A stretch of DNA of 64,000 bases from Azolla caroliniana (lineage: Eukaryota > Plantae > Polypodiophyta). Of this stretch, positions 1,691 to 64,000 are shown one piece after another. Each line of letters opens with the position of its first letter. Position 1 is the first letter of the stretch. The stretch is from NCBI GenBank assembly GCA_043228905.1, contig JBHGNT010000003.1:17732001-17796000 (forward strand). The letters run 5' to 3'. Under the pieces are notes generated by a model. The model was not told where the DNA came from, did not search any database, and saw only the letters and a list, made by a program, of their open reading frames with translations. Both the position numbers and the translations under genes were made by a program.

Positions 1691-2474
1691 TCCCCTAAAC
1701 CATGACAGACACAAGGGGAAGTTGATGAATGTCCTACATGTCTTGACAATCACAAAGAATCTAGTGTTGGTTGGACAAATTGTCAATCAAGGAATGCAGG
1801 TCCGATTCACTCATCTTGGGTATTTCATCGAAGAAGAAGGCAAAGTCATTCCACAAGGGTGCCGAGAAGGGAGGATGTTCATCCTTGAAACAAATGAAGT
1901 CAAAACCACAATGTTTGCAAAAGGGCAAAAGGTTGAGTTGAACATCAACCTATGGAACAAGCGGTTCCGCCATATCAACTTCCCATGACTTCGGGAGTTG
2001 CAGGCAAAGAACACTATTTTCGGACTATTGAAATTCAGAGGCCAAAATGGCCAGGTCTGTGAAGCCTGCGAGTTAGGGAAGCAACACCTACTTCTATTCC
2101 CTAATGAGCAAAATCGGAGTCGGAATAAGCTCGATTGAATCCATTCAGATGTTTGGGGACTAACATAGAATGTGAGCATCAGAGGGAGCCATTACTTTGT
2201 AACCTTCATCGATGATTACACTCAGCACACTTGGGCGTGCTTGATCGCAAAGAAGAGCGAAGTCTTCACTTGCTTCCTGAAGGTGAAGAGCCTCGCCAAA
2301 TGGGAAAGCGGCAGAAAAATTAAGTGCTTGAGGTTCGATGATGGAAAAGAGTACTTTTCCGACCAGTTCTTGAGTTATCTGCAAAACGAAGGAATTCGAC
2401 GAGAATTCTCTTGCAGATACACACTAGAGTAGAATAGTGTAGCTGAGCGGACGAATCAGACCATAGAGGAGGAG
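1691..2474 (+). pseudogene. pol: copia A GAG-pre-integrase and integrase core remnant
   Basis: NLWNKRFRHINF, CEACE.GKQH, HSDVWG, YFVTFIDDY and KIKCLRFDDGKEY motifs. Confidence 0.9.
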
Positions 2475-4433
2475 GTCGAAGTCAAGGGGGAGGACTACTT
2501 ACTTTTATTATGGGAACTGTCGGCATTTCTAAAAAGAGAAAGGGGTCAATACCACAGATCCGAAGAAGAGTTTGGATCAAAACGGTTCGGACTGGAGAGG
2601 TCTGGATCGAAAAGGAACGTTGGTGATCGCGACAAGTGAAGAAGAACTGTTGCTCATCACTGAGGAGAATGAGTTAAACCTTGTTGGCAACGAGACAATG
2701 TGGGTTGTCGATTCTGGAGCATCGTTCCACCTGACACTGGACCAAAGATGCTTTTCATGCTACACAACTAGACATCATGACTGTGTCCGGATGGGGAATG
2801 AAGGTACATGCTGAATTGTCGGCATAGGAGATGTGTTGTTGATGATATCAACCGGATGCAAGTTGTTGTTGAAGGATGTCCGACACATCCCGGAGGTTCG
2901 GTTGAACCTGATAACAGCCAGTCGACTAGATGATGAAGGCTACACGGGCAACATCTGGAACAGAGTAATGAAATTCAGCAAAGGAAGTCTGACAGTGGCC
3001 AGAGCCCGGAAGATCAACACATTGTATCTGATGCATCTAACACTACCGGTGAGGTGTGGCACAAGAGACAGTGTCATATGAGCCAAAAGGGGATGAGAAG
3101 ACTTGCCGAAGATAACTTCATTCCGGAGGTAAAAGACATGCATCCTGAGAAGTGTACTGATTGCTTGGACAACAAACAAAAACTAACCTCCTTTCGGTCA
3201 AGACCACCGATGAGACGGAATGCACCATTGGAGTTGGTGCATACCAATATGTGTCAAGTGGACACGAAGTCACATGCCGGATCGCAGTACTTTGATACGT
3301 TCATAGATGACCACATCCGGAAGCTGTGGGTCTCACCGTTGAAGACAAAGGATCAGGTGATGTCCGTCTTCAAGGAGCTCCATGCGAGAGTGGAAAGGGA
3401 AACCGGCCAGAAGCTAAAGGTGGTTCAAGCAGATAACCGAGGCGAATACTGGGGACAGTTCGAGGAGTACTGCCGGTCAAAGGGAATCCGGCTCGAATTC
3501 ACCGTGCCAAAGACGTCGGAACTGAATGGGCTGGCTGAACGAATGAACCAAACCATAATGGAGAGAGTCCAAAGCATGCTAGCACATGCCAGATTACCCA
3601 AGACATTTTGGGTTGAGGCGCTGATGATGATGACCTATGTGATAAACAGATCACCCTCAGCACCCTTGGAAGGAGACTCACCGTAGAAAGTATGGACCGG
3701 TAAAGATGTATCTTACCGGCATCTGAAAGTGTTTGGTTGTCTCTCCTACATGCATGTCATGAAGGACAAGAGAGAAAAGTTGGATCCGAAGTCCAGGCCA
3801 TGCATATTCCTTGGATAAGACGATGATGAATTCGTTTATCGAGTGTGGAACCTAGTTGACAGAAAGGTTTTTTGGAGTCAAGACATAGTTTTCATAGAAG
3901 TTAAGACCATGGCCGACTGGGAATCGGAGAAGAAGATGATGGACTCCAGATTGATCGACAAAAACTGGCTTGAGGATATAAGGACTTACTCGGTAACCGG
4001 ATGGCACTCGACAAACCGGCCTATTTCGAACAAGAAGAAGAATCAGACACCGGAACCGGTCAAGACCCCGAATCAGATTTAGATTCAGAACAAACGAAGG
4101 AACCAGTAGTGGAATACCAAGGACAGAGATACCCTCTCAGAGAGAGAAGAGGCCCATGGAGATTTTCGGGTGCAAAGCACGTATTGCTGACCGATGACGG
4201 GGAGCCGGAAAGCTTCGAAGAAGTAAAGAAAGACACCCATAGCCGCAAGTGGTTGAATGCCATGTAGGATGAGATGGATTCCCTACATGAGAACCACACA
4301 TAGGAACTGATGGAGTTGCCAAAAGGAAAGAGGGCACTCCGGAACATGTGGGTGTACAAGCTAAAACCGGGAGACGCCGGAAATCCACCAAGGTATAAGG
4401 CCCAAATCGTGGTGAAGGGCTTCCAGTAGAAGA

Positions 4434-7285: not shown

Positions 7286-8759
7286 TAATTGTTTAATATA
7301 ATCATACGAATCTGATATCTTCCGGTTGGAGGCCTCGAGGTCCTGCCTCAAGTTCACGTGTCCTCGTCGTATTTCCGTGACACCGGATCGAGTGAATCTA
7401 GATGGATTCGGTGCAAACCGGATCCAAGGACATATGTGTAAATCTGTTTCATGGTGAGCCTATTCAGGCTATATTTGTAAATAGCCCAAAAGTCATATAA
7501 GTGTAAATATGATTTAGGGCAATCACTTTAGTACATGGTGTAGTAGTTGTTGCTAGTTGTATCATCATTGTACACCTAGAGTGCGAGAGAGAGAGAGATA
7601 CAAAACTAGTTTTTTGTTGTAACTGCCGGTTGGCAAAGACATAGAGCTCAAGGTCATTGCCTCTGAGTCTCTCATTGTATTCTTCTGTCTCCTATAGTAA
7701 TAGTTGGATCTTGTGGGCTCCCATGGTTTTTCCCGTTTGGGTTTTCCACGTAAACATCCAGTGCCATCCGGTTTCAGTTTTTTCTCTTCCATTCGTTGTT
7801 TAAGACTTGGTTGTGGCCGAGCGGTATTTCCTCATAGTTATGTGTATGTTCATAGATGATCAAATCACGTTCTAGGAGTTTTTAGAAAGTTCTAGAACTA
7901 GATGATTTTAGAGTCTAGAATATTCTCCAAAATATTCTCAAGAATATTCTAATGCATGTACTTCAACTCATAGTATAAATCCTTGTAACCTCCTTGGTCC
8001 CTTTGAAGGGATTCAACACCAGTCATTGACACATTTGTCTAGTATTCTCGTTTTGCCTCATCTTTGTCTCCTTAATCTTTATTTCTATCTTCATGCCCTT
8101 ATGTCGCTCACAGCATCTAGAGTTCCTAGCCTTGTCACATCTAGCTCCAAGTTCATCTGTCGCTCATAGCCCCATCGTCTGTGCTCCATCCTAGTTCACG
8201 CTTGGTGTGTCAGTGACAAATTGAATCATTTCCAACTGGAAATACCACCCATCTTCATCGTTGCCTTTTCTTTTAGAGTTACCATCATCACCGTCCTTGC
8301 TTCCAGAGTTACCATCATTAACATCCTTGTCTTCGACGTCATCATTTTGAGCACCTCTTCGCCCAACCATCGTCGTCATCAATACTACTTGTCATCATTT
8401 TTAGGTATCATTTTGCATCACGATTTCGGTGAGGAGTGCTTTCGATCCCTCACCTTCCCAGTTCCGGTGAGGGTCACAACCGCTCACTTTCCTAGTGTGG
8501 ATCAGATCATTGCTCGCTTTCATTGGATTTTTGTTATAGTTTAGTCTCGCGCCATTTTCTATTAGTGAGGATTGTTTTCGATCGCTCACCTTCTATTTTT
8601 GGTGGGGGTCACAACCACTCCCTTTCCTGGTGGGGATCGTGTGGGTTTCTCGCTAGCGCTACTGTTTGTGATGTGTCTTGGGTGAATCTCGACTATTTAC
8701 CCTCTCATAATAGAAGAAGTCGAGTTGACCACTTCACTTGCACTCCTTCGCCTGTTGTT

Positions 8760-9670
8760 GATCCAGTTCTCGGTGAGGGACGCATGGTCACTCACGTCCG
8801 TTCGTGTTTAGTTCTCGGTGAGGACCACATGGTCGCTCATGTTCGTTTGTGTTCCAGTTCTCGGTGAGGGCAGCATGGTCACTCACGTTCGTTCGTGTTC
8901 AGTTCCCGATGAGTATCGCAAATGGTCGCTTACGTATGTCTGTGTTCTAGTCTTCGGTGAGGGCTACACATGGTCGCTCACACCCTTCGGGTTCTAATAC
9001 CCGATGAGGACTGTACATGGTCGCTCACACCCGTCGGTGTTTCAATCTCTGGTGAGGACCGCACATGGTCGCTCATGTCCATTGGTGTTCTAGTCTCCGG
9101 TGAGGACAACATATGGTTCCTTACGCCCATCAGTGCTCCAATTTGCGTCCACCCATACACCACGCATTTTTACGGGCATGAGCGACCATGCGGCCCTCAT
9201 CAGGAGCAGGAACACGAACGATGGTCACTCACATGACCGTTTGCCATTGTTCGTGTTCCAGTTCCCGGTGAGGGCCACATGGTCGCTCATGCCTATTCGT
9301 GTTCAATTCTCGGTGAGGGCTGCATGGTGTCTCACGCCTTGTGTTTTCGATGACTACCGCACATGGTCGCTCACGTTCCAGTTCCCGATGAGGGCCACAC
9401 ATGGTCACTCACTCGTGTTCGTGTTCTAGTCTCTGATGAGGCCCGCATATGGTCGCTCACTCCAGCTATTGTTCGTGGTCTAGATCCCGGCGAGGACCGA
9501 CATGGTCGCTCATGCCCGTTGCTCTTCATGTTCCACTTCCCGGTGAGGACCACACATGGTCGCTCACGTCCGCTGGTGTTTTTGTGCCAACTCTCGGTGA
9601 GGACTGACATGGTCTCTCATGCCCGTTGGTGTTCGTGTTTCCAGTGAGGACAATACATGCTTTCTCACAC
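8760..9670 (+). repeat. tandem minisatellite, ~40-46 bp unit (GTTCCCGGTGAGGRCCACATGGTCGCTCAC...), roughly 20 copies
   Basis: GGTGAGG...CATGGTCGCTCA recurs throughout; one unit is inverted at ~9178-9225. Confidence 0.92.
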
Positions 9671-9754
9671 CCACCACTTCCCGTTCACCCCTACACCGTG
9701 CTTTCGAAAAGGCGGTCGTAAAGAGGAGGATAATGTCACAGACATGACAACATT

Positions 9755-9828
9755 TATGTCAAGATTTGAACTCTTGACCTCTTGTATTATAGTCAAGTAT
9801 TATATTGTAACCAACACATCCAATGTAC
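9755..9828 (-). promoter_or_regulatory. degenerate tRNA-like Pol III A/B-box module in D LTR (antisense)
   Basis: Minus strand TGGATGTGTTGG...GAGGTCAAGAGTTCAAATCTTG, ending ~20 bp from the LTR 5' terminus. Confidence 0.45.
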
Positions 9829-10206
9829 TTGTGTTATGCATATCTTCATAGGTTATCTATTCCCATTCTAGGAGTTTTTAGAAAGTTCTAGAACTAGAAG
9901 GTTCTAGAATATTCTCCAAATATTCTCAAGAATATTCTAATGCATGTACTTCAACTCACAATATAAATACTTGTAACCTCCTTGGTCCCTTTCAAGGGAT
10001 TCAATACCAGACATTGACACATCAATCTAGTATTCTCGTTTCGCTGCATCTTTGTCTCCTTGATCATTCTTTCTTTCTTCATGCCCTCATATCACTCACA
10101 ACATCTAGAGTTCCTAACCTTGTCACATCTAGCTCCAAGTTCATCCATCGCTCATAGCCTCATCATCTCTGCTCCATCCTAGTCCGCAGTTGGTGTGTTC
10201 ATGACA

Positions 10207-11212: not shown

Positions 11213-11786
11213 TGTCATGAACATCGACTTGAATGTGAACCTTAGGCCCTTGCATATATATATATCTCCCCTAGATAAACTTTAGACTTCAAACCTTTGT
11301 ATAAAGAGTGGTATGTAAGACTCAGTATGTAATACTCAGTATGTAAGACTTGGCATGCAAGAATTAGTATGCTTGAGGGGGCGTGTTGAGAATCAAGCTC
11401 AACTTGGTCTAGTGTGTGAACTCACGTTGAGAGTGAATAGACACTCCAACGGTCAAGAGTCACCATTATGTCACCACTTTGTATTCTAGCATTTAGTATG
11501 AGTCATAGAATCATATTCTATGACACATAGCTTATGAGCTTTCACATTCCCCATGCTCCATGAGTCTTGTAGTTAATGAAGAGAGAGGGTGACTATATAA
11601 AGTACCCTCCTCCCACCTTGTATAATGTTGAATCTTTCTCCTTTGTTAATATACTTTACCTTATGTATTCTCTGTGTCTTACTCCTTGTCTCTCTCACTC
11701 ACTCTCACTCACTCTCCCTCTCTCTCTCATACACACACAGTTCATATCTATTCCGCTGCATAGAATCAATCTCTTGATTCTTTACA

Positions 11787-11798: not shown

Positions 11799-12486
11799 GA
11801 CTTGGTAGCTCGATCTAGCCCGATGACCAAGAACCGGCTCATCATTATCGTAGCTTCGCTACATAGCTCACATTCGAAGAGAGAACAAGAACAAGAACAA
11901 GAATCGACATAATGAATACTCAAATGGGAAGCGCTCTCCCTACCGAGAAGTTGGATCGAAACAACTTCGCATCTTGGGAGTACAAGATGTACCAATACCT
12001 TGTTGAACAAGGCTATTGGAGCTACATCAAAGGAGCGCACGAAGACCGACCCGTCGAAACGGCTCCCGGATATGTGACATGGGAGCAAGCCACAAACCAT
12101 GTGATGTATTGCTTGGCGATTGTTAGGAATAGTACTAAAACATAGAGAGAATTAGTACTAGAGAAGGGAAGTACTATTAGTACTAAGAGTACCGGGCTGC
12201 GTAAGACTCCTGAGAGGGAGGAAAGAGAAGAGAAGAGAGAGAGAGAGAGAGAGAGAGTTTGTAAGGACTAGAGAGAGAGATGATACATTATAGGAAGAGT
12301 AAGTACAAGATGGCTATGAGGCTTAAGACTGGCATTGAACCAATTTGGTTCAACATAATGCCTAGTGCCTTCTTTTATAGTGTTCTCAGGAGTAATCCTA
12401 AAGCTTCTAGAATGTGCCAGAGAGATCTGGAATATACATTAATTTCCTATAATAAAACTTAAATGAAAATAATATTCTATGTATTA

Positions 12487-12558
12487 CAATAGATGGTATA
12501 ATGGTCAAGAGCTCGACCCATATAACATAAGGTCGTGGGTTCGAGTCCTGCCATATCA
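12487..12558 (+). promoter_or_regulatory. tRNA-like Pol III internal promoter (A box + B box) in E 3' LTR, antisense to E
   Basis: A box TGGTATAATGG at 12494-12504; perfect B box GGTTCGAGTCC at 12538-12548; tRNA-like 44-nt spacing; T-arm can pair, acceptor stem cannot. Confidence 0.75.
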
Positions 12559-15009
12559 TATGACTATCTCCCCCTTAAGATGATGAGTGGAACGAGTCGG
12601 CACTGATTGCGGATCGGGTTTGTCCGAATACTTTTGGTGGAACTCAACAAGAAGATCTTGACCATTGGCGACATGCTCGACAAGTTCCCAAGTACGTTTG
12701 CTCGGAATATAGCCGAACCAATCATGCTCGGCGGGTTCCCAAGTATGTTCGCTCGGAATATAGCCAAGCCAATCAACCAAATAATAAAGTTTGTTGCGAA
12801 CAAGTTTGGAATCGAGGATAGTAGCAACTTCATACTCCGGGCTGGCTTCCAACTCAAGCGGGGGCGGCGGTGGTGTAACACGATCGGAAATAGTGTTTGC
12901 TTTATAAGGTTCAAGAAGAGAGCTATGGAAAACCGGATATATCTGAAGATGTGGAGGGAGATCAAGGCGGAACGTGACATCATTAATCTTACTAGTAATA
13001 CGGAAAGGACCGAGTCGTCGATAATCCAACTGGTCGCACGGTCGTGCAGTCTTGATGTGACGACATAAGAGGAGGGAAGCCGATGACAATCCGCATATGT
13101 CTTTTGTGTGTGTTGAACATGACGAAGATGAGTAGAGAGATCCATCTGTATATTGCGTAGCGTAGCCTCTCCAAATGATCCTCGGCATGAGGATTGGCAG
13201 GTAGCTCCGGGGTGTCGATCACCGACCAACGAGGATGAGAACCGGTGTAAGCGTAAAATGGGGAGACCCGAGCACTAAGGATTCCTCCTTAATAGTGTTG
13301 GAAGAATGTACTGATATTGAAAATAGGAACATTGCCTCCTTGTGTCCTTCTTCGCGTAATTGACGTAGTGAAATGGTCGAAACTCGGTGAGTAGATTCTT
13401 GGGGTTGTCGATGTCAGACTTTTCTTGTTCTCCAATCTATGGCTGGATTATGTAACTCAAACCAAGGTAATCCTAGGACAATGGGATGCTTTGGACTACT
13501 AATTATATTAAATGCTACGACACACAAAACTACCTAGGACAACTTGAATGGGTTCTGACTCTTCTACAATATTACCGGAAGCTGAGATGCCCATCAATGA
13601 CTACTATAGATGTGGGGCAAGGAAATTTTCTTAAGGATATCTGAGCAGCTTGGGCAAACTTTCGATCCATGAAACAAGAATTAGCTCCGGAATCTAGAAG
13701 TGCTAGGATGTGTACTGGGGGAGTACTTTTAGTACTAACCATGACTTGGGCTAGGAACACATTGCTAACTTGCTTGGAGGGAATGGAACCACTAATGGGC
13801 TGTACAGATCTAGGGCTGTCCAACCAAACGACTCCTATTTTGGCTGGACTCAATCGTTTTACTCTTCATCTAATTGACTAAGGATTTCAAATTTCTTTGG
13901 GATACTTGGGCTATTAGTACTATTAATACTATCAGACACTCCTAAGGGAAGAATTGACTCGAGTTTAGTACAAGCTACGATTTGATTTACCTGTCTTCTT
14001 GGCCTATGGGGAGAATTGATTGCGATATGCCATGGTTCACCGCAATAAGGACATAATCGATTTGCACGTCGTCGTTGCTTTTCTTCTTCCGATAACGGGC
14101 CATGTCTACGCATGGTGTCCATCTCCATCGGTGTCGGAGTATTTTCTTGAGGTATGTCTCATGCAAATGGTTTAGCCACAACTGAGGCGTAAGTGGGATC
14201 CAGCCTAGAGCGTGGTATTTGTAATTGACGTTTCGAACGTCGTTCGAAAAGGTGGTTGTCGCATCGGACCGCTTGACTGATTGCCTCCATAAGAGGCTTT
14301 GGTTCTTCGAGGAAGGTTAGAAATAGATCTTTGATATCGTTCCGCAGGCCGTAGCAAAACTGCTCCATTAGTGCTTCATCATCCCAAGGGATATCTGAAG
14401 CGAGTAGGCAGAGGTTGGACGATCGCCTTGACGCAATCGTCAGATTTTGTTGATCGCCGTCCGGATGCTATCTATATCTCCAAAGCAAGCTTTAAACTCA
14501 CTAATAAAGTCTTCAAAGTTATTAAGTAAGGGCGATTGTTTTTCCAAAAGCGGAGTAAACCATGCCAAGGCTGAGCCACTTAGCAATGTGCCTATTAGGC
14601 CGACTCGGGATGCATCAGTGGGGTATCAAGAAGGATGCATTTGAATGACTAAGCATACCTGATTGAAGAATTCCCTCAATTGCGATCGTGTTCCATCAAA
14701 TTTCATAGGAAGTCCAATCTTGGGCTCTTTATGAAATCTGTGGGGACTTGATCCTTGTTGTTGCAATGCTGCTTCGAGTTGTTGCACACGTAACACTAAC
14801 TCCCCATGTTGTTGTTGCGTTTGCTATTTTTTTGGGCCAATTTGTTGAAGATCCCCTAACAACCTTTGATTTTCTTGTTCCAAGGCAACAAATTTTTCTT
14901 TTAGACACTATAGCTCGGAGAAAACAGATTGGTATTCTTGGGCGCTAACAAAAGCCATTCTATAGGAAAAAGATAAGAGGATGACGGAAAAAGAAAGACT
15001 AGAGACGAG

Positions 15010-15021
15010 AAATTGGTTCAA
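15010..15021 (-). promoter_or_regulatory. self-priming PBS of E
   Basis: Minus strand TTGAACCAATTT, 2 nt after the 5' LTR, is 12/12 complementary to AAATTGGTTCAA in the LTR (15228-15217). Confidence 0.78.
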
Positions 15022-15368
15022 ACTGTTAGGAATAGTACTAAAACAGAGAGAGAATTAGTACTAGAGAAGGGAAGTACTATTAGTACTAAGAGGACAGGAC
15101 TACGTAAGACTCCCAAGAGGGAGGAAAGAGAAGAGAAGAGAGAGAGAGATGATGATAATAGATGATATATTATAGGAAGAGTAAGAACAAGATGGCTATG
15201 AGGCTTAAGACTGGCGTTGAACCAATTTGGTTCAACATAATGCCTAGTGCCTTCTTTTAAAGTGTTCTCAGGGGTACTCCTAAAGCTTCTAGAATGTTCC
15301 AGAGAAATCTGGAATATACATTAATTTCCTATAATAAAACTTAAATGAAAATAATATCCTATGTATTA

Positions 15369-15440
15369 CAATAGAAGGTATAATGGTCAAGAGCTTGACC
15401 CATATAACATAAGGTCATGGGTTCGAGTCTTGCCATATCA
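15369..15440 (+). promoter_or_regulatory. tRNA-like A/B-box module in E 5' LTR
   Basis: AGGTATAATGG at 15376-15386; GGTTCGAGTCT at 15420-15430. Confidence 0.7.
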
Positions 15441-16083
15441 TGATAGCGACATGTGTTCACGACCACATGCTCGGCTACATTCACGAAGCCAAGACGCCGA
15501 AGGAGGCATGGAAATCTACGAAAGATTTCTGCGGCGAACACAACTGCAAGAAGGCTTCAACTCTGCCAAGAGTTGAACAACATTCAACAAAGGGACATGT
15601 CCATCACGATATACACCTTGAAGATCAACGAGCTTTGCGACTCGCTCGGCTCGATAAGCGTAAATATCAATGATGATGAGATGTTCCAAATATGCCTCGG
15701 CGACCTCGCACCACGGTTCGGTGCGATGCGAACCGCCGTTCTAGGAAGGGAGAAATCTCCCTCCTTCGAGCTCCAATAAATGCTATTGGTCGAAGAAAAC
15801 CACGTGCATACAAAGAGCAATGAGTCGGAAGGCCACATGCTCTACACGCACTCGAACGGAGGAAGAGGACGCGGACGAGCGAGAGGCCGATTCGGCGAAG
15901 GACAAGGCGGACGAGGTCCGACCTACGAGAACAACTCCCAATTTCGGCCGCAAAACGGAAGCCAACGAGGAACCTTCGCAAGAAGGGGGAGCTTCCACTC
16001 CGGCATGAGCCATCAAAACACAACCGAATGCGGATATTGTAGAAAGCTCGGCCACCACGAAGAAGAGTGCCGAAAGAAGATGC

Positions 16084-17184: not shown

Positions 17185-19535
17185 CACACTCCGTAAAAAA
17201 CTGGAGTAGCCGAGCACAAAAATCGGCACATCCTTGAAGTACTACGAGTCATGATGATTGAAAAGCATATGCCCAAGTCATATTGGGCCGAAGCTGCAAA
17301 TACGGCCGTCTACCTAATGAACCGGTGCACAACATCCGGAGTAAACAAGCTCACTCCGCACGAAAAATACTTCGGAAAGAAGCCGGACTTATCGCACACC
17401 CGGATATTCGGCGCAATAGCATACGTGCACATACCCGACGAAAAGCGGCAAAAGCTAGATCCAAAGTCGGAGAAATGTATCCTCGTAGGATACTCACTGG
17501 AGCAAAAGGGGTACAAGTGCTACAACCCCTCAACTCGAAAATCTCGAGTAAGTTGAGACATCGTTTTTGACGAGTCCGCATCTAGGTACTCACCAGAGAC
17601 AACTTCAACTCCGACTCCGCTCGACCCAGAATCCGCCGAACAAGAGATAGAGGATGAAGATCGCCTTACGCGCATGTTCGAAGAAAGTCTAATCACGACC
17701 CGACTGAGTGGACCACAAGAGCCTTTGAGCGATCAAAGCACATCATGACCTAGCCTGAAGATGGACAAAGGCAAGGAGAAAATGACGGAATACGAAGACG
17801 ATTGCTTCAACGACGATGAGTCAACTCACTCACTTGACAGTGAGTTCGGCGTCTTCGATGTACCAATCGGAGCTAAGAAAGCCCTCATCTCTGCAAATGA
17901 AATGCTCCATTGCCCTCTGAAAAGAATCCCGTCAGCCGATTCGGCTACAACGACTACATGGCATATCACTATGCCTTTATGATGAAGGTGGCGACAATAC
18001 GCGAGCCGGAAACATTTTCCGAAGCAACCAAGGATCCACGATGGATCAAAGCCATGAACGAGGAGATGCAGGCACCTACGCAAGAACGAGACATGGGATC
18101 TCATTCCCACCTCACCACACAAAAAGGTGATCGGATGTAGATGGATTTACAAAGTGAAGTACAACGCTGACAGTTCCGTGAACCGCTACAAAGCGCGACT
18201 CGTAACGAAAGGCTATGCCCAAACTGATGGAGTTGACTACGAGGAGACCTTTGCCTTGGTGGCAAAGATGACGACGGTACGGACCGTAATTGCACTTGCC
18301 GTAGCGAAATGGTGGCACCTCCATCAAATGGACGTCAAGAACGCCTTTCTCCAAGGAGAATTAGAAGAGGAGGTGTACATGATACAACCACCTGGCTTCA
18401 ACTCGAGCACCCATCCGAAAGATGTATGCCGACTCAAGAAGCCACTCTACGGCCTCAAGTAAGCACCGCGTGCTTGGCATTCGAAGATAACGCAATATCT
18501 TCATCAAACCGGCTTCCGTATGTCAAAATCGGACAACTCCCTCTACATATGAAGCAATTCCGCAAGTCCGATCGTCATCATCTTATATGTGGATGACCTA
18601 GTCATTGGAGGTGAGCATCTCGTTGAAATCAATAAGGTCAAATCCCTCCTTTCCGCCAACTTCGAGATGACGGACATGAAGGAGCTCCACTACTTCCTCG
18701 GCATCAAGGTAATTTGGACTCCGGCCGGAATCATGATCTCTCAACGGCACTACATCCTCAACTTGTTATACAAGTTCGGGATGACTAAGTGCAAATCTGC
18801 GGCAACCCCGCTCGATCGCAATCTCAAACTAGATGCGAACTCCGGCACCAAAGCGTGTGAGCCAACTCAGTATCGGCAACTCATCGGGAGTCTCATCTAC
18901 CTCATGATCACTCAACTTGATCTCAGTTATCCGGTTGGTCTCCTTAGTCAATTCATGCAACCACCGCGTGATACTCACTTGGATTGCGCTAAGCGAGTTC
19001 TCCGATACGTGACCGGCATAATGGATTGCGGCATCCTCTACAAGACTGTGATTCCAATACGACTCGAGGGGTAAACAGACGCCGATTGGGCCGTATTAGA
19101 GACATGTACTAAAGTAAACATTAGATAAGGATAGAAAATAGATAAATAGATAGAAAGGAGAGAGAGAAAGAAGGGTGCCGATCCACCTAACCACCCCCGA
19201 GCAAAGGGATCGAGACGGACTTGGGCCTCGATCGGCGTCCCATACCACTGTCGTGGCGTCGAGTCGTACCTGGTGCTAGCGTGCTCGCTACAAGAGTTGA
19301 CCCACCAGAAGACAGAGTCTCGACGTAGTCAACCAGATAATGAAATGAGGGTAGCTAGGCCTCTATTTATAGCGATACCTAAGGCCCCAGCCATGTTCAC
19401 ACTTGGCCTAATGGGTTGTCTCAATCCCGAGGATTTAAAAGTAATCCTCCCCTTCTTTACACTCTCGTTTAACCCTCACACTTATCCACATGTATAGAAT
19501 ACTACGGTAAATTCTCACCACGAGATATTATATGG

Positions 19536-22500
19536 TCATGCCCATAACATACTCCCTCTCTTTAAAACATTGCACTCTTGCAATGGAAAGTTAGGGAAGT
19601 TTGTTCTTAGAGTATTCTCGTGTTCCCATGTGGCATCTTTTATTGATTTATCCATCCATTTTATTTTAAATTCTTGGATTTCTTTAGTACGTAATTTTTT
19701 TGTTTTAACATCGAGAATTCTTTCTGGTACATTTGGTTTAGAAGATAATTCTTCAAAAGTAACTAGAGTTTCAGTTGTAACTATATTGTCTCCAGAACCT
19801 AGAAGTTCTTTTAGACGACTCACATGAAAGACTGGATGAATTCCAACACCGTCGGGAAGAGCGAGACGATAGGCTGATGACCCAATGCGTTTGAGGACTG
19901 TAAAAGGTCCACAAAATCGTGGGGCTAACTTAGCGCACTTACCCGTAGACAATGTCTTAGAATTGTGAGGTACACGCAAAAATACCTTCTGTCCAGGGTT
20001 GAATACACGAGGTTGCCTATGATGATCGGCATAAAAACGCGCTCTATCTTGAGCTGTTTTTATATTATCTTGTGCAATATGCAACATATCTTGCATATCC
20101 CAAAGAAAGTTTTGCGTACTTCGCAACTCATCATGATGTATATTAACATCAATAGGGGCTCATGGCTGAAAACCATACATCAACATAAAAGGACTATATC
20201 CCATCGACGTATGCTTGGAGCTGTTATAAGCAAACTCCAAGATTGGGAGATAACGTTCCCATTTTGTTGCTTTTGCACCAACATATGCTCGAAGCATGTC
20301 CTCAACAATTTTATTTACTCGTTCTGTTTGTCCATCGGATTGAGGATGATCCGTGGAGCTCATTTTCAACGTAGTTTATAACTTCTTAAAGACTTGCGTC
20401 CAGAAGTCACTAGTAAATTTTGGATCTCGATCACTCACGATATCCATCGGTAACCTATAAAAACAAAATAATTCGTCAATGAATTGGTAAGCCAATTCAG
20501 GAGCTGTTACCATGGTTTTAGTAGCAATAAATCTAGCCATTTTAGTTAGTCGATCAACCAGAACCCAGATGGCATCATGGCCTTTTTGGGTGCGTGGAAG
20601 GCTAAGAATAAAATCCATGGATATACTTTCCCACTTATTATTGGGAATGTCCAAGGGATGTAAAAGTCCTGCGGCTTTAAGTTGCTCGGCTTCTTAAAAT
20701 TGGTAACATTTAGTCACATAGCTATGTATGTCAAGACGCATCTTAGGCCAATAAAATTGAGTGGAGATGAGAACGAGTGTACGATGTATTCCAGGGTGCC
20801 CTGCTGAGGGTGCATCATGGCATTAAAAGAAAATCCTCTTTTTGACCTCAGGTAAATCTAGAACACAAACCTTCCCATTACGGTAGAGCAGACCATTCGT
20901 AATGTGGAAGTATTCCTGCGAGGATGTGGTGGTGTCTGTTCCAGACTCAACTCTTGCCCAGTATTTTGCGAAATAACTGTCATCAAGATACTTTCCTCGA
21001 AGGTGATCATAAAGATCTGATGTTATTTCAATGAAGCTAAGCATGTTAACTTCACAGATGCGACTTAGTGCATCAGCAACAGTGTTCATGGAACCTTTAC
21101 GATATCGTATGGAAAAATCAAAGTCCTGGATGAGATTAGCCCATCGTGCCTTATGACCTTTTAGGTCTTGTTGGTCACAAAAATATTTCAAGGACTCGTG
21201 GTCCATAGTTACCACAAAGCGATTTCCATAAAGATAATGGCGCCATGTTTTGAGCGCATGTATAACTACAAATAATTCCTTTTCTTGAACGATATACCGA
21301 CATTGAACAGAATCAAGTTTCTTACTCTCGAATGCTATTGGTTTACCATCTTGATATAAGACAACACCTATAGCATAATCACTTGCATCGGTTTCAACCT
21401 CAAAAGGTTTTGAAGGATCGGGTAAAAGAAGTGAAGGAGCCTTGCATACCAGGTCCTTGAGTTCCTTAAAGGCGAGGTCTAGTGTAGCAATCTAGACAAT
21501 AGGTTTTGTAGACTTATGCGTTTGACCTTTTAGAAGATCAGTAAATGACGTCGTCAATTGGGAGTAATTACGAAGGGATTTTCGCAAAAACCTGACAAAA
21601 CCAAGGAATGATCAAACTTCTCGAATATTCCGAAGAGTAGGCCAAAGCTTGGTTTTCTCGATGTGAGAAGGATCAATTTCAACTCCTTGTTCGGTTATGA
21701 GATGTCCAAGATAAGTAATTGATTTCTTGAAGAACTCACACTTTGAGATCTTCGCATAAAACTATTTGTCACGCAATGTTTGTAAAACAAAGCAGACATG
21801 TTTAGCATGTTCATGTAATGTACGGCTATAAACTAAAATATCATCCAAGAAAATAATGATAAAATTTCCAAGTTGTTCTCGGAAAATGTCATTCATTTCT
21901 TGTTGAAATGTAGCTAGAGCATTGGTCAAACCAAAAGGCATAACCAAAAACTCATAATGGCTATAGCGCGTACGAAATGTTGTTTTAGGAACATCGTCCT
22001 CACCTATACGAATTTGATGGTAGCCAGTATGGAGATCAAGTTTTGTAAAATACCGGGCTCGCTGGAGACAGTCAATTAGATCGTCAGCCCGGGGCAATGG
22101 ATACGAATTCTTGATGGTCACTTTATTCAAGTGTCGGTAATTAATACACATACGCCATGTGCCCTCTTTCTTTTTAACCAAGAGAACTTGTACATCCCAT
22201 GGAGATTTACTATAACGTATATAACCCATTCGTAAATAGTCCTTGAGTTGCTTAGATACCTCATCCTCTTCAGATCGACTTAAGCGATAAGGAGGTATAC
22301 TCATTGGTGCAACGCCCGGTACAGTATCTATACGATGGTCTATATTACGTTTAGGAGGTAACCCATCTAGTAGTTCACTCGGAAAAACATCACGAAAATC
22401 ATTTAAGATTTCATCAAGTTGTTGTTGTTCAAAATATGTTAATTGAACCGAGACATTATCGATATTGTAAACGTGAATGTCCGGATCAAGTACATAATAA

Positions 22501-22802
22501 AATAGAGTAGAACAAGACAACTCGGATATTGATGGACACGAGGAAACAATTGAGAGGGATTGTTTTTTTACACATTGAATAAAATGAGTACAATCATTCA
22601 GTACAAAAGTAATTGAATGATGAACCCAATCAATAGATAAAGAAGAGTTTTTATTATAAAACCAAGGATAACCTAGTATTACATCAGTGGTACAAAGATT
22701 CATTACATGGAAGACTACTTCCTCTATATAAGTATCAATAGAAATTCCTAATGAATGAATCGCCCCATTGATGTATTGTACTATTCCATCAGCCAGGTGC
22801 AC
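19536..22802 (-). pseudogene. pol: H pol (protease end, RT, RNase H, integrase, chromodomain)
   Basis: Minus-strand ORFs with [52 protein letters not shown] and PERILDVK...ATWE motifs. Confidence 0.93.
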
Positions 22803-24484
22803 CGTATAGGTGTGATCACTTACGGTGGGTTGGATTCCCCATATCTAAACCAAACGATCATTGACAAAGTTGTGTGAGCTTCCTGGATCAAATAAAAATT
22901 GTACGGGAGATCCATTGATATACCCGTTTGCACGTTGTAAATCATTGGGACCCAATACATAGTGAGGGAAAGAACATTGACAATTACTTAAATGATGTGT
23001 ATAGACCTGAAGGACATTAGGAATCTGACCTTTATGGTCTGCAGGTTTAGCTTTGTTGTCGTGCTCTTTCCATTGGAGCTTTCGACATTGCTCTTTTGTA
23101 TGACCCTTCTTTTTGCAGAATACGCAAAAAGGATGTTGTCGCTTACAATCGCGATGCGATCTATGAATTCGTTGGGTGTCTTACATTTCCCTGCGAATTG
23201 CGACTGCTTAGTCCCAAGCGCTTCGTTGGGTTTATTGTGGTCCTTCTTCGAAGTGCGTTGATAGCGAAGAACTATTTCAACGGCCTCTTCATGCAATGTC
23301 CAGTGCACAATCCAGTGATAGTTCGAATTGGGGATGCCATTGACAAAACAAGCTATTGACCAATTGTCCCCATCTAGACCCAATTTTTGGATTTGGGTTC
23401 TAGCATGGTGAACATAGTCTTCTAATGAGGAAAACTTCCTACTAGAGAGGTTCATTAAAGCTTGTGCTGCCTCGGTTCGAGAGGGAGGTTGCAGAAATTG
23501 GCCCTTGAAAACTGTGACAAAATTTGTCTAGGTATCGGGCAATTTCCCCGTTGTACGGAGCCCACGCCACCAGGCGGCGGCCTTACCCACTAGTTCTCGG
23601 CCGACATATGCAATCTTCGTACTATCTGGGGTGGGATAGAGCTCAAAATGAGACTCCCATTGGCCCAGCCACGTGCAGATTGCTTCTTCGGTTCTTTCCT
23701 TTTTGTCTCCCGTAAATGGCTTAACGACAAACGATGGTTCACCTTGTCACTCATCATTTCTATTAGTCTCACGTTGTAGACTAATGACACGTTGTCGTGA
23801 AGAAAACCGTCCCCAGGCGCAAACCGTGTATAGTGTGTGTGAACCGGCCCTTTCACGTGGGCATGTCCCTTGTTGTACGGTGGATGGGTAGGCACAAAAG
23901 TTAAATCCTAGGTAGCAATATTCTGTAAGGGAAATCGAGGAGTATCTCTGTCCGAAAGGACAGAGAGTTAATGTGATGTAAACGGTTGAGACGACCTCCC
24001 TCCTTGAGCTATAAAAGAGAGGGAGACGGGGAGGGAAGGGGATCGCACGCTAGAGGGGACGAAGTGCTGCCGGATTGGGACCGAGCTCTTCTCCTCTGTC
24101 GTTCTCCATAGCTTTCTTGGTGTAGGTTCTCGAGAGGCTGATTCTGCTCCATGGAACGCCCGTGTGCTTCTGGCAGAATCTCCATCTTGCTCTCCGGTGT
24201 GCGTGGGCGATCGGGCGTCGGCATCTGCCTCGCCGACCTGGTCGGTTGTAACTGTTCGAGTTGTCTGCATACACGCAAGTACACACAGATTGTTACATAC
24301 ATACTCTAGTGTTCTCAACTCGTGTCTCCTATGTTGTTGTGCGAGCGCCCCGTGGGCTTCTTTGTCTATACATGAGTGAGTGTCTCTCTCTTTCTCTCCT
24401 ATCGCTTCCTCACCTATTCCTCGGTCCAAGACCCCAGTGGTCCCGCCTTGTTCTCCACGCACGCGCGTAGCAACACGACATATT

Positions 24485-24502
24485 TGGTGAACTGGACGTG
24501 AA
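24485..24502 (+). promoter_or_regulatory. primer binding site of I, probably tRNA-Trp
   Basis: TGGTGAACTGGACGTGAA matches 16/18 of the complement of the plant tRNA-Trp 3' end as I recall it (TGGTGAACCCGACGTGAA). Confidence 0.65.
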
Positions 24503-24523
24503 CAGGTGGCAGAGGAGTAGAAG

Positions 24524-25996
24524 ATGAGGGGGTCGGACCTTGCAAAAGCCATGGCTTCGGCCGTAGACCGTATAGTGAGTGCGCGCGAAGGCACCGACGC
24601 CCTTGATAGGGCTATTGAGACGGTTTTCGGTACGATCGGCCGGTTTAGTGGAAAGGATGCCACGAGCTGCTTGGCGTCCTACCGGGCTGAGATGGTAATG
24701 AGGGACATTCCGGAAGAGAGGTGTCTAGCCGGATTCCCTCGAGTGGTGATGCCGGGTATCCATACGGAGGTGCTCGAGGTATGGGCCGAGAGCCGGACCT
24801 GGGAGGAGTTCGAAGGTCCGCTCCTCGAAAAATACGGGCTTGAAGATGCGCTTCGACTTTCGAAGCGGGACTTCATGGAGTGGGTGGAGACCCCCGACAA
24901 AGGAAGGAATGCGCCAGTGCTCCTTCGGGAGTTTGAGGAATGCTTCGCGCGCCTCTCAGTGCTTGACCGGACTGTTCTGGACACAAGCCGTGTCTTATTG
25001 TTTGTTAAGTCGGTTGACGAGCGGGATCGGGAGCAGGTAGGCCTCCTATTGGAGACTGATGACGGGCTGACGGCTGACTGGGCCGTAGTGAAAAGGGTCT
25101 GTGGCCGTTTCGACAAACGGCGGGAATGGGCTGACAAAGGATCGACAGGGGCAGGCTCTGTCGCAGCAAGGAAGCTCGAGCCAACACCACCAACGCGAAG
25201 GGAAGAGACCCGAGATTGGCTCGAGACCGGGTCGGCTTCAACTAGCATGGTCAAGGGCTCGTCCGGGGGAGCAGCTCTAAAGGAGCTGACGCGGATGGTA
25301 AGGGATCTCCAGATCGCCCAGGCACGGAGGAGTGGTGACGAACAGGCCCGTGACCGACGACCTCTAGCTGAAAACAGGTGCATGTGGTGTGACGCGGTTG
25401 GGCACATCCGAAAGGACTGCGGGGACTTCGCCGAGGCGATGAGAAGCAACGTGGTGTACCTGTGGAATGGTCGGGTGCACGCCAGCGAAACCCGAAGGGC
25501 CCTGAACCTGAACGTCAGGCGAGGGGGTATGAAAAGGCTGATGGAGGAGGCGGCGGCTCGTCACGCGGAGACCGTCCACTACTTGGCGTCAGTTGGTATT
25601 CGGGTCGGAGGTGGCGAGGTTCCGAAGACGAACAAAGCCGGGTTCTGGCCGACGATGCTGGAAGGCCTCGACGGTGCGCGACTGAGGAAAGGAGAGGTGA
25701 ACCGCGCGGAAAAACGGGTCCGAGAGGTAATCGGGTGGAGTGACCCGGTGGAAGAAAAGACGGGCTTCTTCGAAGCCACTGGTCAAAACTACGAGGCTCT
25801 AGTAGAGGACAAGCCGGTAGGGAAAATCGGAGGGAAACTCGATTCGGGAAAAGGCGGAATGAGGCCGGTGTACTCGGCGCCCAGGATAATCCCAAGAAGG
25901 GCGGGTACCGGTTGGGCACAGAAATCGAAAGATCCACCGACTTGCGAAAGGTCCTGGAAGAACGAATCCTCGACAGCAAGGTGGAACTGTCGCTGA
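24524..25996 (+). CDS. gag: Gag of element I (CCHC zinc knuckle; C-terminal part frameshifted)
   Basis: 490-aa ORF, the longest in the window, starting just after the PBS; GRFSGKD, TWEEFE and CMWCDAVGHIRKDC motifs. Confidence 0.85.
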   Translation: MRGSDLAKAMASAVDRIVSAREGTDALDRAIETVFGTIGRFSGKDATSCLASYRAEMVMRDIPEERCLAGFPRVVMPGIHTEVLEVWAESRTWEEFEGPLLEKYGLEDALRLSKRDFMEWVETPDKGRNAPVLLREFEECFARLSVLDRTVLDTSRVLLFVKSVDERDREQVGLLLETDDGLTADWAVVKRVCGRFDKRREWADKGSTGAGSVAARKLEPTPPTRREETRDWLETGSASTSMVKGSSGGAALKELTRMVRDLQIAQARRSGDEQARDRRPLAENRCMWCDAVGHIRKDCGDFAEAMRSNVVYLWNGRVHASETRRALNLNVRRGGMKRLMEEAAARHAETVHYLASVGIRVGGGEVPKTNKAGFWPTMLEGLDGARLRKGEVNRAEKRVREVIGWSDPVEEKTGFFEATGQNYEALVEDKPVGKIGGKLDSGKGGMRPVYSAPRIIPRRAGTGWAQKSKDPPTCERSWKNESSTARWNCR

Positions 25997-28900: not shown

Positions 28901-30066
28901 GAGGAACAGGAGGATTTGATGGCGGCGTACCACGATAGCCCGTGGGCTGGACACCGTGGAACGTGGGCCACATTCTAAAAGCTAAAGGGGAAGTACTGGT
29001 GGCCGGGACTATACCGGGACGTGCATCGGTTCGTGACGACTTGCGAAAGCTGCCATGTGCACTCCATGATCCGACATCGGGACGAGCTTCACCCGACCTA
29101 CCCTCTGACCATCCACTTCAAGTGGATGGTGGATTTGGTGACGGCGCCGATGGGGGTAGGACAAATGCGGTATCTGGTGCTGGCTCGGGAAGATCTAACG
29201 AACCAGGTTGAAGGCCGAGCCCTGTAGAACAAGACGACGGCAGCCATGTGCCGGTTTTTGATTGAGGACGTAGTATGCCGATACGGGTGCGTAGGGAAGA
29301 TCGTGGCTGACCGTGGTGAGCTGGACCAGAAGAGGCCGAAGAGCTGTTCGACCGGCTAGGAGTCAAACTTTCGCTCACCACAGCGTACAATCCGGAGGCG
29401 AATGGGAAGGTGGAGCGCGGACACGGGCCAATTGTCAAAGCACTAGTACGGGCGTGCGGAGGCCGAGTTGGGGACTGGCCACGGCTGCTACCTTATGCCT
29501 TGTGGGCGGACTGGACTACGCACAGTTCGATAACCGGGTTCATGCCGGCCGAGCTGATGTTCGGACAGAAGCCGATCATGCCAACAGAGCGAACGATCTC
29601 CTCGTGGGCCACGGTGGACTAGAGGGATGAGATGAGCCGGGAGGACTTGTTGGCAGCGCAGATTCGACAGCTCGAGCGGAGGCCAGAAGACGTAGAGCGG
29701 GCCGCGGAGAAACTTCGGGTAGCGAGGAAAAGGAGCAAAGCCCGGTTCGACCGAACACACCGGCTCCGGCCAAGGAAGATCAAGGAAGGCGACTGGGTGC
29801 TAGTCTATGATAGCAGCCTCGACAACCAGCACAAGGCCACGCGGAAGTTTGCGAGGAGGTGGTTCGGGCCTTACGTAGTAACATGCGCCAACAACAATGG
29901 GACGTACCATCTCGCGGAGCTCGACGGTACGAGAATGGCGATACCGGTAGCGGGAAAAAGGATCAAAACGTTCAAGAAGCGACACGACGGTGAGCCGGAG
30001 CAAGGGGGCATGGACAACGACGATGAGCAGCCCGAGGCGGAGGATGAACCGGTAGACGGGGAATAA
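25912..30066 (+). pseudogene. pol: element I protease, RT, RNase H, integrase (few stops/frameshifts)
   Basis: LVDHGSEINL protease; PYSNRWFTVPKKDGTLRFIQD and FLDDVP RT; TVDASPTG RNase H; H....GH.G and CESC integrase zinc finger; WFGPY motif. Confidence 0.92.
26578..26643 (+). promoter_or_regulatory. putative -1 ribosomal frameshift signal (G_GAT_TTT + pseudoknot) between PR and RT of I
   Basis: In-phase heptamer just before the TAG at 26585; 6-nt spacer; stem 26591-26598/26614-26621; loop GTGGGG pairs with CCCCAC at 26638-26643; RT ORF is in the -1 frame. Confidence 0.65.
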
Positions 30067-32159: not shown

Positions 32160-32435
32160 GACGTAATCGAGACACGTAATCGAGGCATATACCTCTACGC
32201 ACACGAGACATTCAAAAATAAGGGTTAATTGTAATACGCAATTGAGGTATTGACCTCTTACGCATATGAGACCAAACGCATATCATTTACAACGAATCGA
32301 GGTATTGACCTCATACGCAAACATAACATATGTTCGTGAACATAATACGTAATTGAGGTATTAACCTCGTACGCATACGACACTCATCACATATTATTTA
32401 TATGTCAAATGAGGTATTGACCTCGTGCACATATG
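32160..32435. repeat. tandem repeats (~55-60 bp) with GAGGTATTGACCTC hairpin core in H 5' leader
   Basis: GAGGTATTGACCTC or close variants at ~32181, 32244, 32299, 32356 and 32411. Confidence 0.75.
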
Positions 32436-34236: not shown

Positions 34237-34492
34237 CAGACATACAGTTCATATCTATTCCGCTGCACAGAATCCGTCTCTTGATTCTTTACATATAGTA
34301 TGTAAGACTTGGCATGAACATGCTTATCATGCATCACTACATGTATAAAAAGGGTTGATCTCCCTTGTTAACATCAAGGAGATCAACACCAGTCATGGAA
34401 AATATATTTTTAGTCATTGTCATCAACTTCTCGATCTCCCTATCTCATCAACTTCTCCATCTCTTTATCTCCAATTGTTCATCTGTGACAAA

Positions 34493-44083: not shown

Positions 44084-44751
44084 TGTCATGAACAGGATGA
44101 TGCTAGGAAGAGACAACACGGTGTCGTGCCTTTCGGCTCCGGATCATTGTGTGAATCGGGTGGGAACCACTGAGGTTTTGGACTAGGACAAAGAAGAATA
44201 TGAGATAAGGCTAGGAATGAATAGGTAGAAAGAGAAGTAAGTAATAAAACTTGTGAATCCCACGTGTTTAGTGTATTCAATCAATATTTAGATTGTAAGA
44301 AAGAGAATTTTGATGATAAACTCGTGAATCCCACGAATATATTAGATTGATCAGTTCTTGTAAAATAATCAACAACACCATACATCTTTCTCTCCTCCTT
44401 ATATAAGGATGGAAGAGGCTAAGCATAGCTTCATGGTTTTTCTAAAGTGTTCATGCACACTAAATGTGCATGACTTGCTTTTTACACTATGCTTTTATTT
44501 CCTAAATATAGTGCTCATGCTCGCTAGATGTGCACGAGTGATTTTTTATTGGTGTACATTTTTCTTATAAAAAAAGTATTCACGCATTCTAAAAATGCAT
44601 GACTTACCTTTTAATAAAGGTAGGCGTAAATAAAGGTCTTATACATATTAAATCTATATTAACAATACTTAGGATAAGTTAGTACAATGGTAAGGTTGGG
44701 GTTTATCTACGTGGAGGTATAGGGTTTGAATCTTGCCCTATGCATGTGACA
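44084..44751 (-). mobile_element. solo LTR (gypsy) carrying a tRNA-like module
   Basis: TGTCATG...TGTGACA inverted termini; TATATAA near 44400; A box TAGTACAATGG at 44680-44690 and B-box-like GGTTTGAATCT at 44723-44733; TSD weak (GTCTA/ATCTT). Confidence 0.65.
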
Positions 44752-62709: not shown

Positions 62710-64000
62710 AAACATGAACACGATATGTTGTATTGAATTGACGTAAAAAATAGAGTTTTCATCATAACTCTATACAATATATTGAATTCATGTTCAAAGT
62801 TTTTTTACCGGATTTAAAAAATAATAATAATAATAAATTAAGCTTGAGTTCATAGAAAAACCAAATTTTTCATCACAATTCAATACAATGTATCGAGTTC
62901 ATGTTTAAAGTAATTTTTTCTAATTTTAAAAAAAAAATCAATTTGTTTCAAATTTTTTATTTTTTTTCAATTTTTTTTTGTTTTTTTCAATTTATTTTAT
63001 TTTTTTATTTTTTATGGAAAAAATAATAATTTTAAACATGAACTCGATACATTGTATCGACTTGTGATAAAAACTCTGGTTTTTTCATCACTTATTAAAG
63101 CTCCAAAACAAAATTCTAAGACAGAGACAAAATTAGTACTAAGAGAGAAATATTAGTACTAAGAAGAATTTAAGGTGTAGAACACTTGAGAAAAGAAGAG
63201 AGAGAGTGAGTGAGTGAGAGAGAGAGGGATTGAGAGGGAATGATGATGACATGAGTTAATCTACGGCGTATCGAGTTCATGTTGAAAAGCTAACTTTTGT
63301 ACATGAACTCCATACGCCTTTTCAACATGAACTCGATATGGCATATCGAGTTCATGTTTAAAGTTTTATTTCGGATTTTTTTATAAAAATAATTACATTT
63401 TTTCCTATTTTATTTTGGTATTTTCTTTTTTTTTCTAAAAACTTTAAGCTTTAAAAAGGGATGAAAATAATATTTTATATATTACAATGTATGGTCTAAT
63501 GGTCAAGAGATTGACCCATGTAGCATAAGGTCATGGGTTCAAGTCCTACCATATCATGACATGAACTAAGCTAGCTTTTTTACATGAACTCGATACGCCG
63601 TATCGAGTTCATGTTGAAAAGCTAACTTTTTTACATGAACTCGATACGGCGTATCGAGTTCATGTTTAAAGTTTTATTTCTGATTTTTTTTTAAAAATAA
63701 TTACATTTTTTCCTATTTTATTTTGGTATTTTCTTTTTTTTTCTAAAAAACTTTGACCTTTAATAAGTGATGAAAATAATGTTTTATGTATTACAATGTA
63801 TGGTCTAATGGTGAAGAGCTTGACCCATGTAGCACAAGGTCATGGGTTCTAGTTCTACCATATCATGACATGAACTAAGCTAGCTTTTTTACGTGAACTT
63901 GATACGCCTTTTGAACATGAACTCGATACGCCGTATCGAGTTCATGTTCAAAAGCTAACTTTTTTACATGAACTCGATACTTCTAATTTTTTTTAAAAAA
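62710..64000. repeat. array of CATGAACTCGATAC-N3-GTATCGAGTTCATG palindromes (foldback/MULE-TIR-like) with a ~309-bp tandem duplication
   Basis: More than 10 full or half palindromes; CATGAACTAAGCTAGC at 63560 and 63869. Confidence 0.8.
63460..63561 (+). promoter_or_regulatory. E-family LTR tip with tRNA-like A/B boxes (second copy at 63770-63870)
   Basis: TGGTCTAATGG at 63492-63502; GGTTCAAGTCC at 63536-63546; ends CCATATCATGACA; homologous to 12463-12564. Confidence 0.75.

Follow-up and report, generated by a model that had tools for sequence, protein, structure and literature searches.

Antisense A-box/B-box modules conserved at the U3 tips of LTRs in a clade of self-priming chromoviruses, a candidate chromatin barrier

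A tRNA-type module, consisting of an A box, an AGGTC motif and a B box, occupies the U3 tip of the LTRs in a clade of chromoviruses that is represented in the window (the whole stretch of DNA analyzed here, 64 kb in length). The module is real, clade-wide, and under selection. The selected feature is neither a tRNA fold nor a defined RNA, and the module is very probably a DNA-level site for Pol III factors, judging from the sequence comparisons described below. More specifically, we propose that TFIIIC and TFIIIB may occupy it and that it would then serve as a chromatin barrier at the outer edge of the element, a reading to which we assign a probability of roughly 0.45. Insulation from silencing, one of the functions raised in the initial annotation, appears to be the best reading of the module.

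The window consists of nested LTR retrotransposons, and element E sits among them (Table 1). Sequencing runs that contain E bear six organism labels, in addition to plant and leaf metagenomes, and the source is probably a non-seed land plant. E encodes gag, protease, and the integrase C-terminal SH3 domain and chromodomain; it is deleted for RT, RNase H, and the integrase core. It is 83 to 84% identical to the intact element L001, of which positions 2057-4371 are absent from E. L001 contains intact gag (431-aa frame) and pol (1203-aa frame; RT, RNase H, integrase, chromodomain), and the comparison indicates that E is a deletion derivative of L001, an intact self-priming chromovirus that appears to be of the Tf1/Sushi (Tcn1-like) type. 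The two elements display the hallmarks of chromoviruses: the order gag-PR-RT-RH-INT-chromodomain and LTRs in L001, and the PPT and 5-bp target duplication in E. By alignment, the chromodomain of E belongs to group I and has the aromatic-cage residues. Summed contig depth on the E LTR, which is taken over contigs of four organisms and is not a copy number, is mostly near or above 100,000, which implies that the E family is very abundant.

Table 1. Positions of element E, its parts, and the module sites in the window
Feature	Position	Strand	Remark
Element E	12121..15445	-	Non-autonomous chromovirus, sits within a copia gag
Target duplication of E, 5 bp	12116-12120 / 15446-15450		One mismatch
E 3' LTR	12121..12565	-	U3 tip is 12565
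Pol II TATA box, E 3' LTR	12372..12379	-	Arranged back to back with the module; A box ~115 nt away
AT-rich zone upstream of the A box	12434..12493	+	Predicted TFIIIB landing region
A box, E 3' LTR	12494..12504	+ (antisense to E)	0 mismatches against the a-priori model
AGGTC, tRNA variable-loop motif, E 3' LTR	12530..12534	+
B box, E 3' LTR	12538..12547	+	33 nt after the A box
Integrase SH3 and chromodomain of E	12565..13060	-	Pfam PF24626, PF00385; alignment
Polypurine tract (PPT) of E	12566..12578	-
TTTT proposed as Pol III terminator	12632..12635	+	Minority variant of the E family
Primer-binding site (PBS) of E	15010..15021	-	12-nt complement of the predicted RNA 5' end
Predicted self-primer, E 5' LTR	15217..15228	-	33 nt after the TATA position; copy at 12335-12346
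Module, E 5' LTR	15376..15429	+	A box 15376, AGGTC 15412, B box 15420
Degenerate module, tip of the D 3' LTR (9734-10206, +)	9763..9822	-	B box 9772; A box eroded, near 9822
Module, U3 tip of an unrelated LTR (44084-44751, -)	44680..44732	+	A box 44680, B box 44723, spacing 32; B box C56>T
E-family tip inside a 309-bp tandem unit	63492..63545	+
Second E-family tip	63801..63854	+	B box damaged

The six A/B-box sites listed in the initial annotation are all real and correctly placed. A profile trained solely on 43 metagenome tips and run over the window returned exactly these six as its top matches (44.5, 42.9, 41.5, 40.2, 13.6, and 8.6 bits). One further match, at 5.5 bits, fell elsewhere in the window, and the reversed window gave no match of at least 5 bits. 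The antisense polarity and the tip position, claimed to be about 15 to 30 bp from the LTR end, also held: at the window sites the B box lies 16 to 29 nt from the LTR end, and the module opposes gag, PR, the chromodomain, and the TATA box in polarity. In the E 5' LTR, read-out from the module would enter flanking DNA. The two 63-kb tips are 85 to 88% identical to E over 97 nt and are not independent; because they are E-family copies, the window holds three independent cases, namely E, D, and the 44-kb LTR. The latter had been described as an unrelated solo LTR. It is indeed unrelated, with no blastn match to any of the loci, but its solo status was not borne out, as the flanking duplication is imperfect (3/5). 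The B-box pattern alone is not above chance in the 64-kb window (17 matches versus 12.1 ± 3.4), so the evidence lies in the combination of boxes and in the related loci.

Two of the module-bearing regions have unusual surroundings. Element D (7834-10206) is non-coding, with an interior made of a ~47-nt tandem repeat that includes a block in inverted orientation (9175-9293). A copia-like LTR interrupts the D 5' LTR ~13 nt upstream of the predicted module start, and the missing tip is absent from the window. At 62683-64000, E-family LTR pieces (a U5-like part and the two tips) lie among palindromic repeats of ~25 nt and 309-bp tandem units; the tips have no preceding PPT, and the region is possibly an LTR-derived satellite or the result of capture by another element.

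We examined the distribution of the module in 77 loci that were fetched by similarity of the integrase C-terminus and chromodomain alone (best 80 of 208 confirmed). A usable LTR tip was present in 62 of the 77 loci. The other 15 were excluded, their tips being truncated, interrupted, or not recognized by the pattern; among these, L053 and L071 visibly have the module and L055 lacks it. Seven distant loci (41 to 45% identity) formed an outgroup, and the three of them with an RT fall outside the clade. The first 130 nt of each tip were scored with an a-priori model that requires an A box and a B box 30 to 45 nt apart. Antisense A and B boxes were detected in 47 of 55 in-clade tips and in all five window tips, or 52 of 60 overall. 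In the controls, 2/60 tips passed on the sense strand, and the next 130 nt gave 0/53 and 1/53. None of the 10 members of the out-of-clade set (the seven loci plus F, G, and C from the window) passed the box model. Passing tips outscored 40 of 40 dinucleotide shuffles, except that L063 outscored 39 of 40. Four of the eight failing tips (L017, L044, L050, and L058) seem interrupted or deleted, and the other four retain a damaged module. Module matches off the queried LTR, at L076:611-666, L004:2946-2970, and L051:168-196, are probably tips of neighboring elements of other families.

In an RT-RNase H tree of 29 rows, the carriers form part of a single clade of 23 rows (support 95/93), and their RT-RNase H proteins share 67 to 100% identity. 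Element H is sister to the carrier clade, and F, G, and the outgroups fall outside it; long branches make the placement of H, F, and G unsure. The window chromoviruses H and F have no recognizable module, so the module is not needed by all chromoviruses. The H tip is module-like in alignment, but it scored 7 in the box model (9/40 shuffles as good) and gave no profile match, and it was not counted. Among viral contigs, a search with the chromodomain alignment found no relative, and an RT search found 10 distant elements (42 to 51%) with no profile match of at least 5 bits, the clade-trained profile being a weak probe at that distance; the terminal repeats of these 10 are assembly overlaps, which deprives a tip test on them of any weight. 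H itself (11213-11370 plus 34295-34491, and 42723-43111) has a 5' LTR that is split by a 23-kb nest, in which copia C holds E, F, and G; its tip may hold an eroded module, although it fails the box-model and profile tests. F (19094-33137, minus strand) has ~44% RT identity to L001, no module, and no visible Tf1-type self-priming match, and its leader hosts a non-chromovirus gypsy element at 23793-30830.

For analyses of conservation, we collapsed redundant loci to 14 families. Among these families, mean pairwise identity reaches 0.61 (A box), 0.82 (AGGTC), and 0.76 (B box), compared to 0.33 in the anticodon arm and 0.33 to 0.38 in the flanks; the gapped upstream identity of 0.46 is close to the shuffle level of 0.43. 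The module recurs in LTRs that can no longer be aligned, as the initial annotation had observed, and the boxes are far more conserved than the surrounding U3, the opposite of what the annotation had named as refuting its reading. B-box columns were part of the search model, which inflates B-box conservation, and the families were defined by flank divergence. The model included neither AGGTC, which is the best-conserved block among the families, nor the fixed spacer: the A-to-B spacer is 32 to 33 nt in 14/14 families and, with D excluded, in 48 of the 51 passing tips, where the model would have accepted 30 to 45 nt. The distance from the B box to the LTR end ranges from 18 to 63 nt across the 14 families. 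Conserved boxes and AGGTC with fixed spacing, set against randomized flanks, indicate that a promoter-type motif is under selection and argue against accidental SINE insertions.

The substitutions are of the kind expected if a protein reads the module as DNA. C56 is retained in 43/47 tips, and position 57 is free (G in 28, A in 18). Changes that RNA pairing could tolerate as wobble are rare (G46>A in 2/47, T47>C in 0/47), and changes are commoner at positions 51 (G51>A in 8/47) and 49 (A in 24/47). Within the E family, contigs from four runs show no variant at 6% over 12501-12510 and 12528-12534; positions 12476-12482 and 12522-12527 are variable, the 5' half of the A box varies, and C56>T reaches ~10% in one run. 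AT content upstream of the A box is 0.74 to 0.83 in the first 60 nt versus 0.55 to 0.65 deeper (13 to 14 families). In plant tRNA-type promoters, a TATA motif is found upstream, near -35, and CAA between -7 and -3 (PMC3082873); among the 14 families these two upstream motifs occur at chance level (4/14 each; P = 0.48 and 0.31).

A tRNA gene was considered as the identity of the module and rejected, as cloverleaf pairing is lost. ARAGORN found no tRNA in the window and none at the tips of 45 loci, and six T-stem registers and the D, anticodon, and acceptor stems show no covariation across the 14 families. Rfam gave no tRNA match on the whole window; on the tip alone, the tRNA model scored 13.7 bits (E-value 2.1), below the cut-off of 29. 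Blastn of the tip against phage records returned only 19-nt matches at chance level.

The module-bearing elements appear to prime reverse transcription from their own RNA. We scanned 37 sequences for a self-priming match, and eight loci (four families, three different sequences) have a 12-nt match at the LTR end to a segment 31 to 33 nt after the TATA box, with both sides covarying. Five other sequences have short off-site matches and 24 have none; among these are many 3' LTRs, which are followed by host DNA. The scan missed the E 5' LTR, whose TATA box is mutated. The match is 7 to 8 nt in D and 11 nt in H. Self-priming is the normal state in the Tcn1/Tf1/Sushi group, which is also marked by an aromatic-cage chromodomain (PMC6317226). 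Both marks are found here, the self-priming PBS in the eight loci of four families and in E, and so the priming mode was inherited rather than being a recent loss. The annotation's statement that D and E no longer use a tRNA primer is therefore right as to self-priming, with 12 nt in E and a weak match in D, and wrong in implying a loss, the state being ancestral to the group. H self-primes without a recognizable module, so self-priming does not require one. Protein comparisons gave only PEG10/Tf2-like and vertebrate or fungal neighbors, and the nearest named proteins are amphibian, fungal, and algal (40 to 65%). The predicted start of E (12323-12346 and 15217-15240) lies inside a near-perfect palindrome. 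A 7-mer resembling a B box occurs within the self-primer in three of the four self-priming families, possibly by chance.

Under the barrier reading, the A box, AGGTC, and B box would likely bind host TFIIIC, which would load TFIIIB onto the AT-rich zone inside the LTR. The bound factors would form a portable barrier, facing outward, that could keep the Pol II promoter, 110 to 190 nt away, open once the chromodomain brings the element to heterochromatin. Backward polarity would keep the TFIIIB zone within the LTR at any insertion site and would aim any Pol III away from the element's Pol II promoter. If the tip unit were in sense orientation, its upstream zone would fall in host DNA that cannot be predicted, and transcription would run into the element promoter. 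Any Pol III RNA would be a by-product. The module is present in intact autonomous elements. In yeast, tDNAs and B boxes act as barriers, and C56 is essential for TFIIIC (PMC3395662); group I chromodomains can target heterochromatin (PMC3350952). Our literature search returned no plant demonstration of tDNA or B-box barrier activity, which has been shown in yeast. Several observations speak against a barrier: AGGTC is not a classical TFIIIC box and is unexplained by a two-box model, A-box G10 is G in just 18 of 47 tips, C61 is lost in 5 of 14 families, and a barrier at the tip guards one side only. As to origin, we infer that an ancestor gained a tRNA gene or a tRNA-derived SINE head once. An insertion immediately upstream of a tRNA gene, with the element pointing away from the gene, would have the same geometry and would offer an origin by capture, with a SINE head as the alternative. 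Tentatively, an autonomous, heterochromatin-seeking lineage may have domesticated a tRNA-gene promoter as a self-carried outward barrier, and an abundant family may thereby scatter Pol III factor sites and outward promoters.

If selection acted on an RNA instead, the module would be a working Pol III promoter that makes, from the 3' LTR, an unterminated RNA antisense to the PPT and the integrase end, with a role in self-limiting copy control or as an siRNA feed; 5' and solo LTRs would give read-out RNA into the flanks. We consider this unlikely. It would explain why the elements retain every part that a full type-2 promoter requires, namely the A box, the spacing, and the AT-rich upstream zone, and foamy viruses indicate that active Pol III units are possible in retroviral LTRs (PMC3993851). 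T4 runs are also scarcer in the 400 nt that precede the LTR than elsewhere in pol (0.79 versus 2.01 per 400 nt; 14 loci). However, this scarcity follows from base composition, with 11 runs observed versus 13.2 ± 3.3 after shuffling, and occurs in two of three outgroups as well, so selection against terminators was not found. The first T4 lies anywhere from 1 to 297 nt away and is missing within ~400 nt in 20 of 45 tips, and the tips have no shared RNA fold. In the initial annotation, TTTT at ~12632 was to end an antisense RNA of ~145 nt. The run is present, but position 12635 is C in most contig depth in all four runs (TTTC), so that most family copies would lack the terminator. Shuffled sequences fold as well as the proposed 154-nt stretch (z = -0.09), and these results do not support a defined RNA.

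Selection could also act on the genomic RNA, in which the segment 3' of the PPT complements the D, variable, and T loops of a tRNA and might anneal a host tRNA for packaging, dimerization, or strand transfer. Such a role accounts for AGGTC, the adjacency to the PPT, and the polarity, and it has a counterpart in HIV-1, where a tRNA-complementary sequence in U3-R promotes reverse transcription (PMC6468702). We nevertheless find it improbable: the elements self-prime, which gives strong-stop DNA without an attached tRNA, and the complementarity is broken, with positions 49-51 at 0.45 and the anticodon arm at background. The rarity of wobble-compatible changes at conserved positions points the same way, and the fixed spacing better suits a protein footprint or tRNA ancestry. 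About as improbable, in our estimate, is an integration handle modeled on Tj1 and Ty3 targeting of tRNA genes, with TFIIIC bound to the U3 end of the cDNA or to resident LTRs, serving in nuclear tethering or offering Pol III starts for relatives to target. Here the module lies 11 to 63 nt from the cDNA end, the self-priming Tj1 inserts 1 to 10 bp upstream of tRNA start sites (PMC4600332), and the LTR that interrupts the D 5' LTR does so ~13 nt upstream of the predicted start. Yet that LTR is copia-like, the missing D tip is absent from the window, and the case is single; moreover, the copia gag site of E has no nearby box, and 159 nt separate the copia within the H 5' LTR from the tip. A neutral relic left by a single old SINE or tRNA insertion, or a series of independent SINE insertions, is very improbable and largely refuted. 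Many Repbase LTRs contain partial tRNA-like sequence, although only TRIMs were analyzed in that study (Kojima; PMC10886601), and 8 of 60 tips fail the box test. These failing tips seem interrupted or deleted or retain a damaged module, however, and in the remaining tips the boxes survive with fixed spacing while the sequence between them is randomized. Insertion of a tRNA-derived SINE was rejected, and with it the independent insertions that the initial annotation had named as its counter-explanation: the carriers belong to one RT clade and have the module at one position, with no tail or duplication around it in the tips inspected.

The view that no tRNA-type equivalent had been described proved incorrect. 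Helenus, or TRIMp3 (Kojima 2024), carries tRNA-derived A and B boxes in its LTRs and includes one plant family (Selaginella) (PMC10886601). As in the elements studied here, both LTRs contain the boxes without a functional tRNA. Helenus elements, however, are non-coding and 311 to 1263 bp long, whereas E is 3.3 kb with gag, PR, and chromodomain and L001 has intact gag and pol. Helenus is tRNA-primed, and the PBS here matches the element's own predicted 5' end. In the supplement entries, the Helenus unit is sense and mid-LTR and is proposed to make genomic RNA, in contrast to the antisense unit at the U3 tip. The 5.5-kb autonomous self-priming elements, with a TATA box of their own, likewise have no parallel in Helenus, and PMC10886601 argues that any autonomous partner has to rely on Pol II and that extended LTR similarity between such a partner and TRIMp3 is unlikely. 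The module-bearing elements are a new variant of Pol III-promoter-bearing LTR elements and are not Helenus members.

Other known systems share single features with these elements. Cassandra and Ajax TRIMs have a Pol III internal promoter in their LTRs, but it is 5S-type (A, IE, C), the elements are non-autonomous, and the Cassandra unit transcribes the element itself (PMC10886601). Chromoviruses of the Tcn1 clade and Tf1-Sushi group have the same Gypsy domain order, group I chromodomain, and self-priming PBS (PMC6317226, PMC2864245); the excerpt of PMC6317226 has no Pol III or tRNA-like LTR feature, and "polymerase III" does not occur in that of PMC2864245. Foamy-virus miRNA cassettes are A/B-box units in the LTR of an autonomous retroelement, but have terminators, hairpins, and miRNAs (PMC3993851), and neither a terminator nor a hairpin is conserved here. 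Yeast tDNA and ETC barriers are TFIIIC sites that stop heterochromatin spread, the mode proposed for the module; ETC sites are host chromosomal with an extended B box (PMC3395662), whereas the module is mobile and retains, in addition, an A box at a set spacing. Among titles and abstract openings in the literature, we found no antisense tRNA-type promoter at the U3 tip of autonomous LTR retrotransposons, though Repbase annotation may exist. The excerpts of PMC6088434 and PMC13578239 contain nothing on the module, and no retrovirus of fish whose LTR includes a tRNA gene turned up in the literature searched.

Known Pol III promoters in LTRs belong to small non-coding TRIMs, where they make element RNA, or to foamy-virus miRNA cassettes. 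The promoter-type module here is backward, sits in intact coding elements, and is visibly under selection across a clade whose RT-RNase H identity goes down to 67%. If the module is a barrier, it would suggest, in a form open to testing, how elements with a chromodomain stay expressed after entering heterochromatin. It would also be a candidate plant insulator of 55 nt, with variants available in nature, and these genomes would contain a large mobile pool of TFIIIC sites.

Two of the related sequences have additional content. One protein, P0154, a relative at 75% identity, has PF00692, a dUTPase-type family, within pol. In locus L026, ARAGORN predicts two tRNA genes, tail to tail, at 552-627 (+; Asn-GTT) and 831-906 (-; Thr-AGT). 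The pair lies directly upstream of the integrase C-terminus, the PPT, and a module-bearing LTR, on a contig with a coverage of 26, and L026 is possibly a non-autonomous derivative that carries whole tRNA genes.
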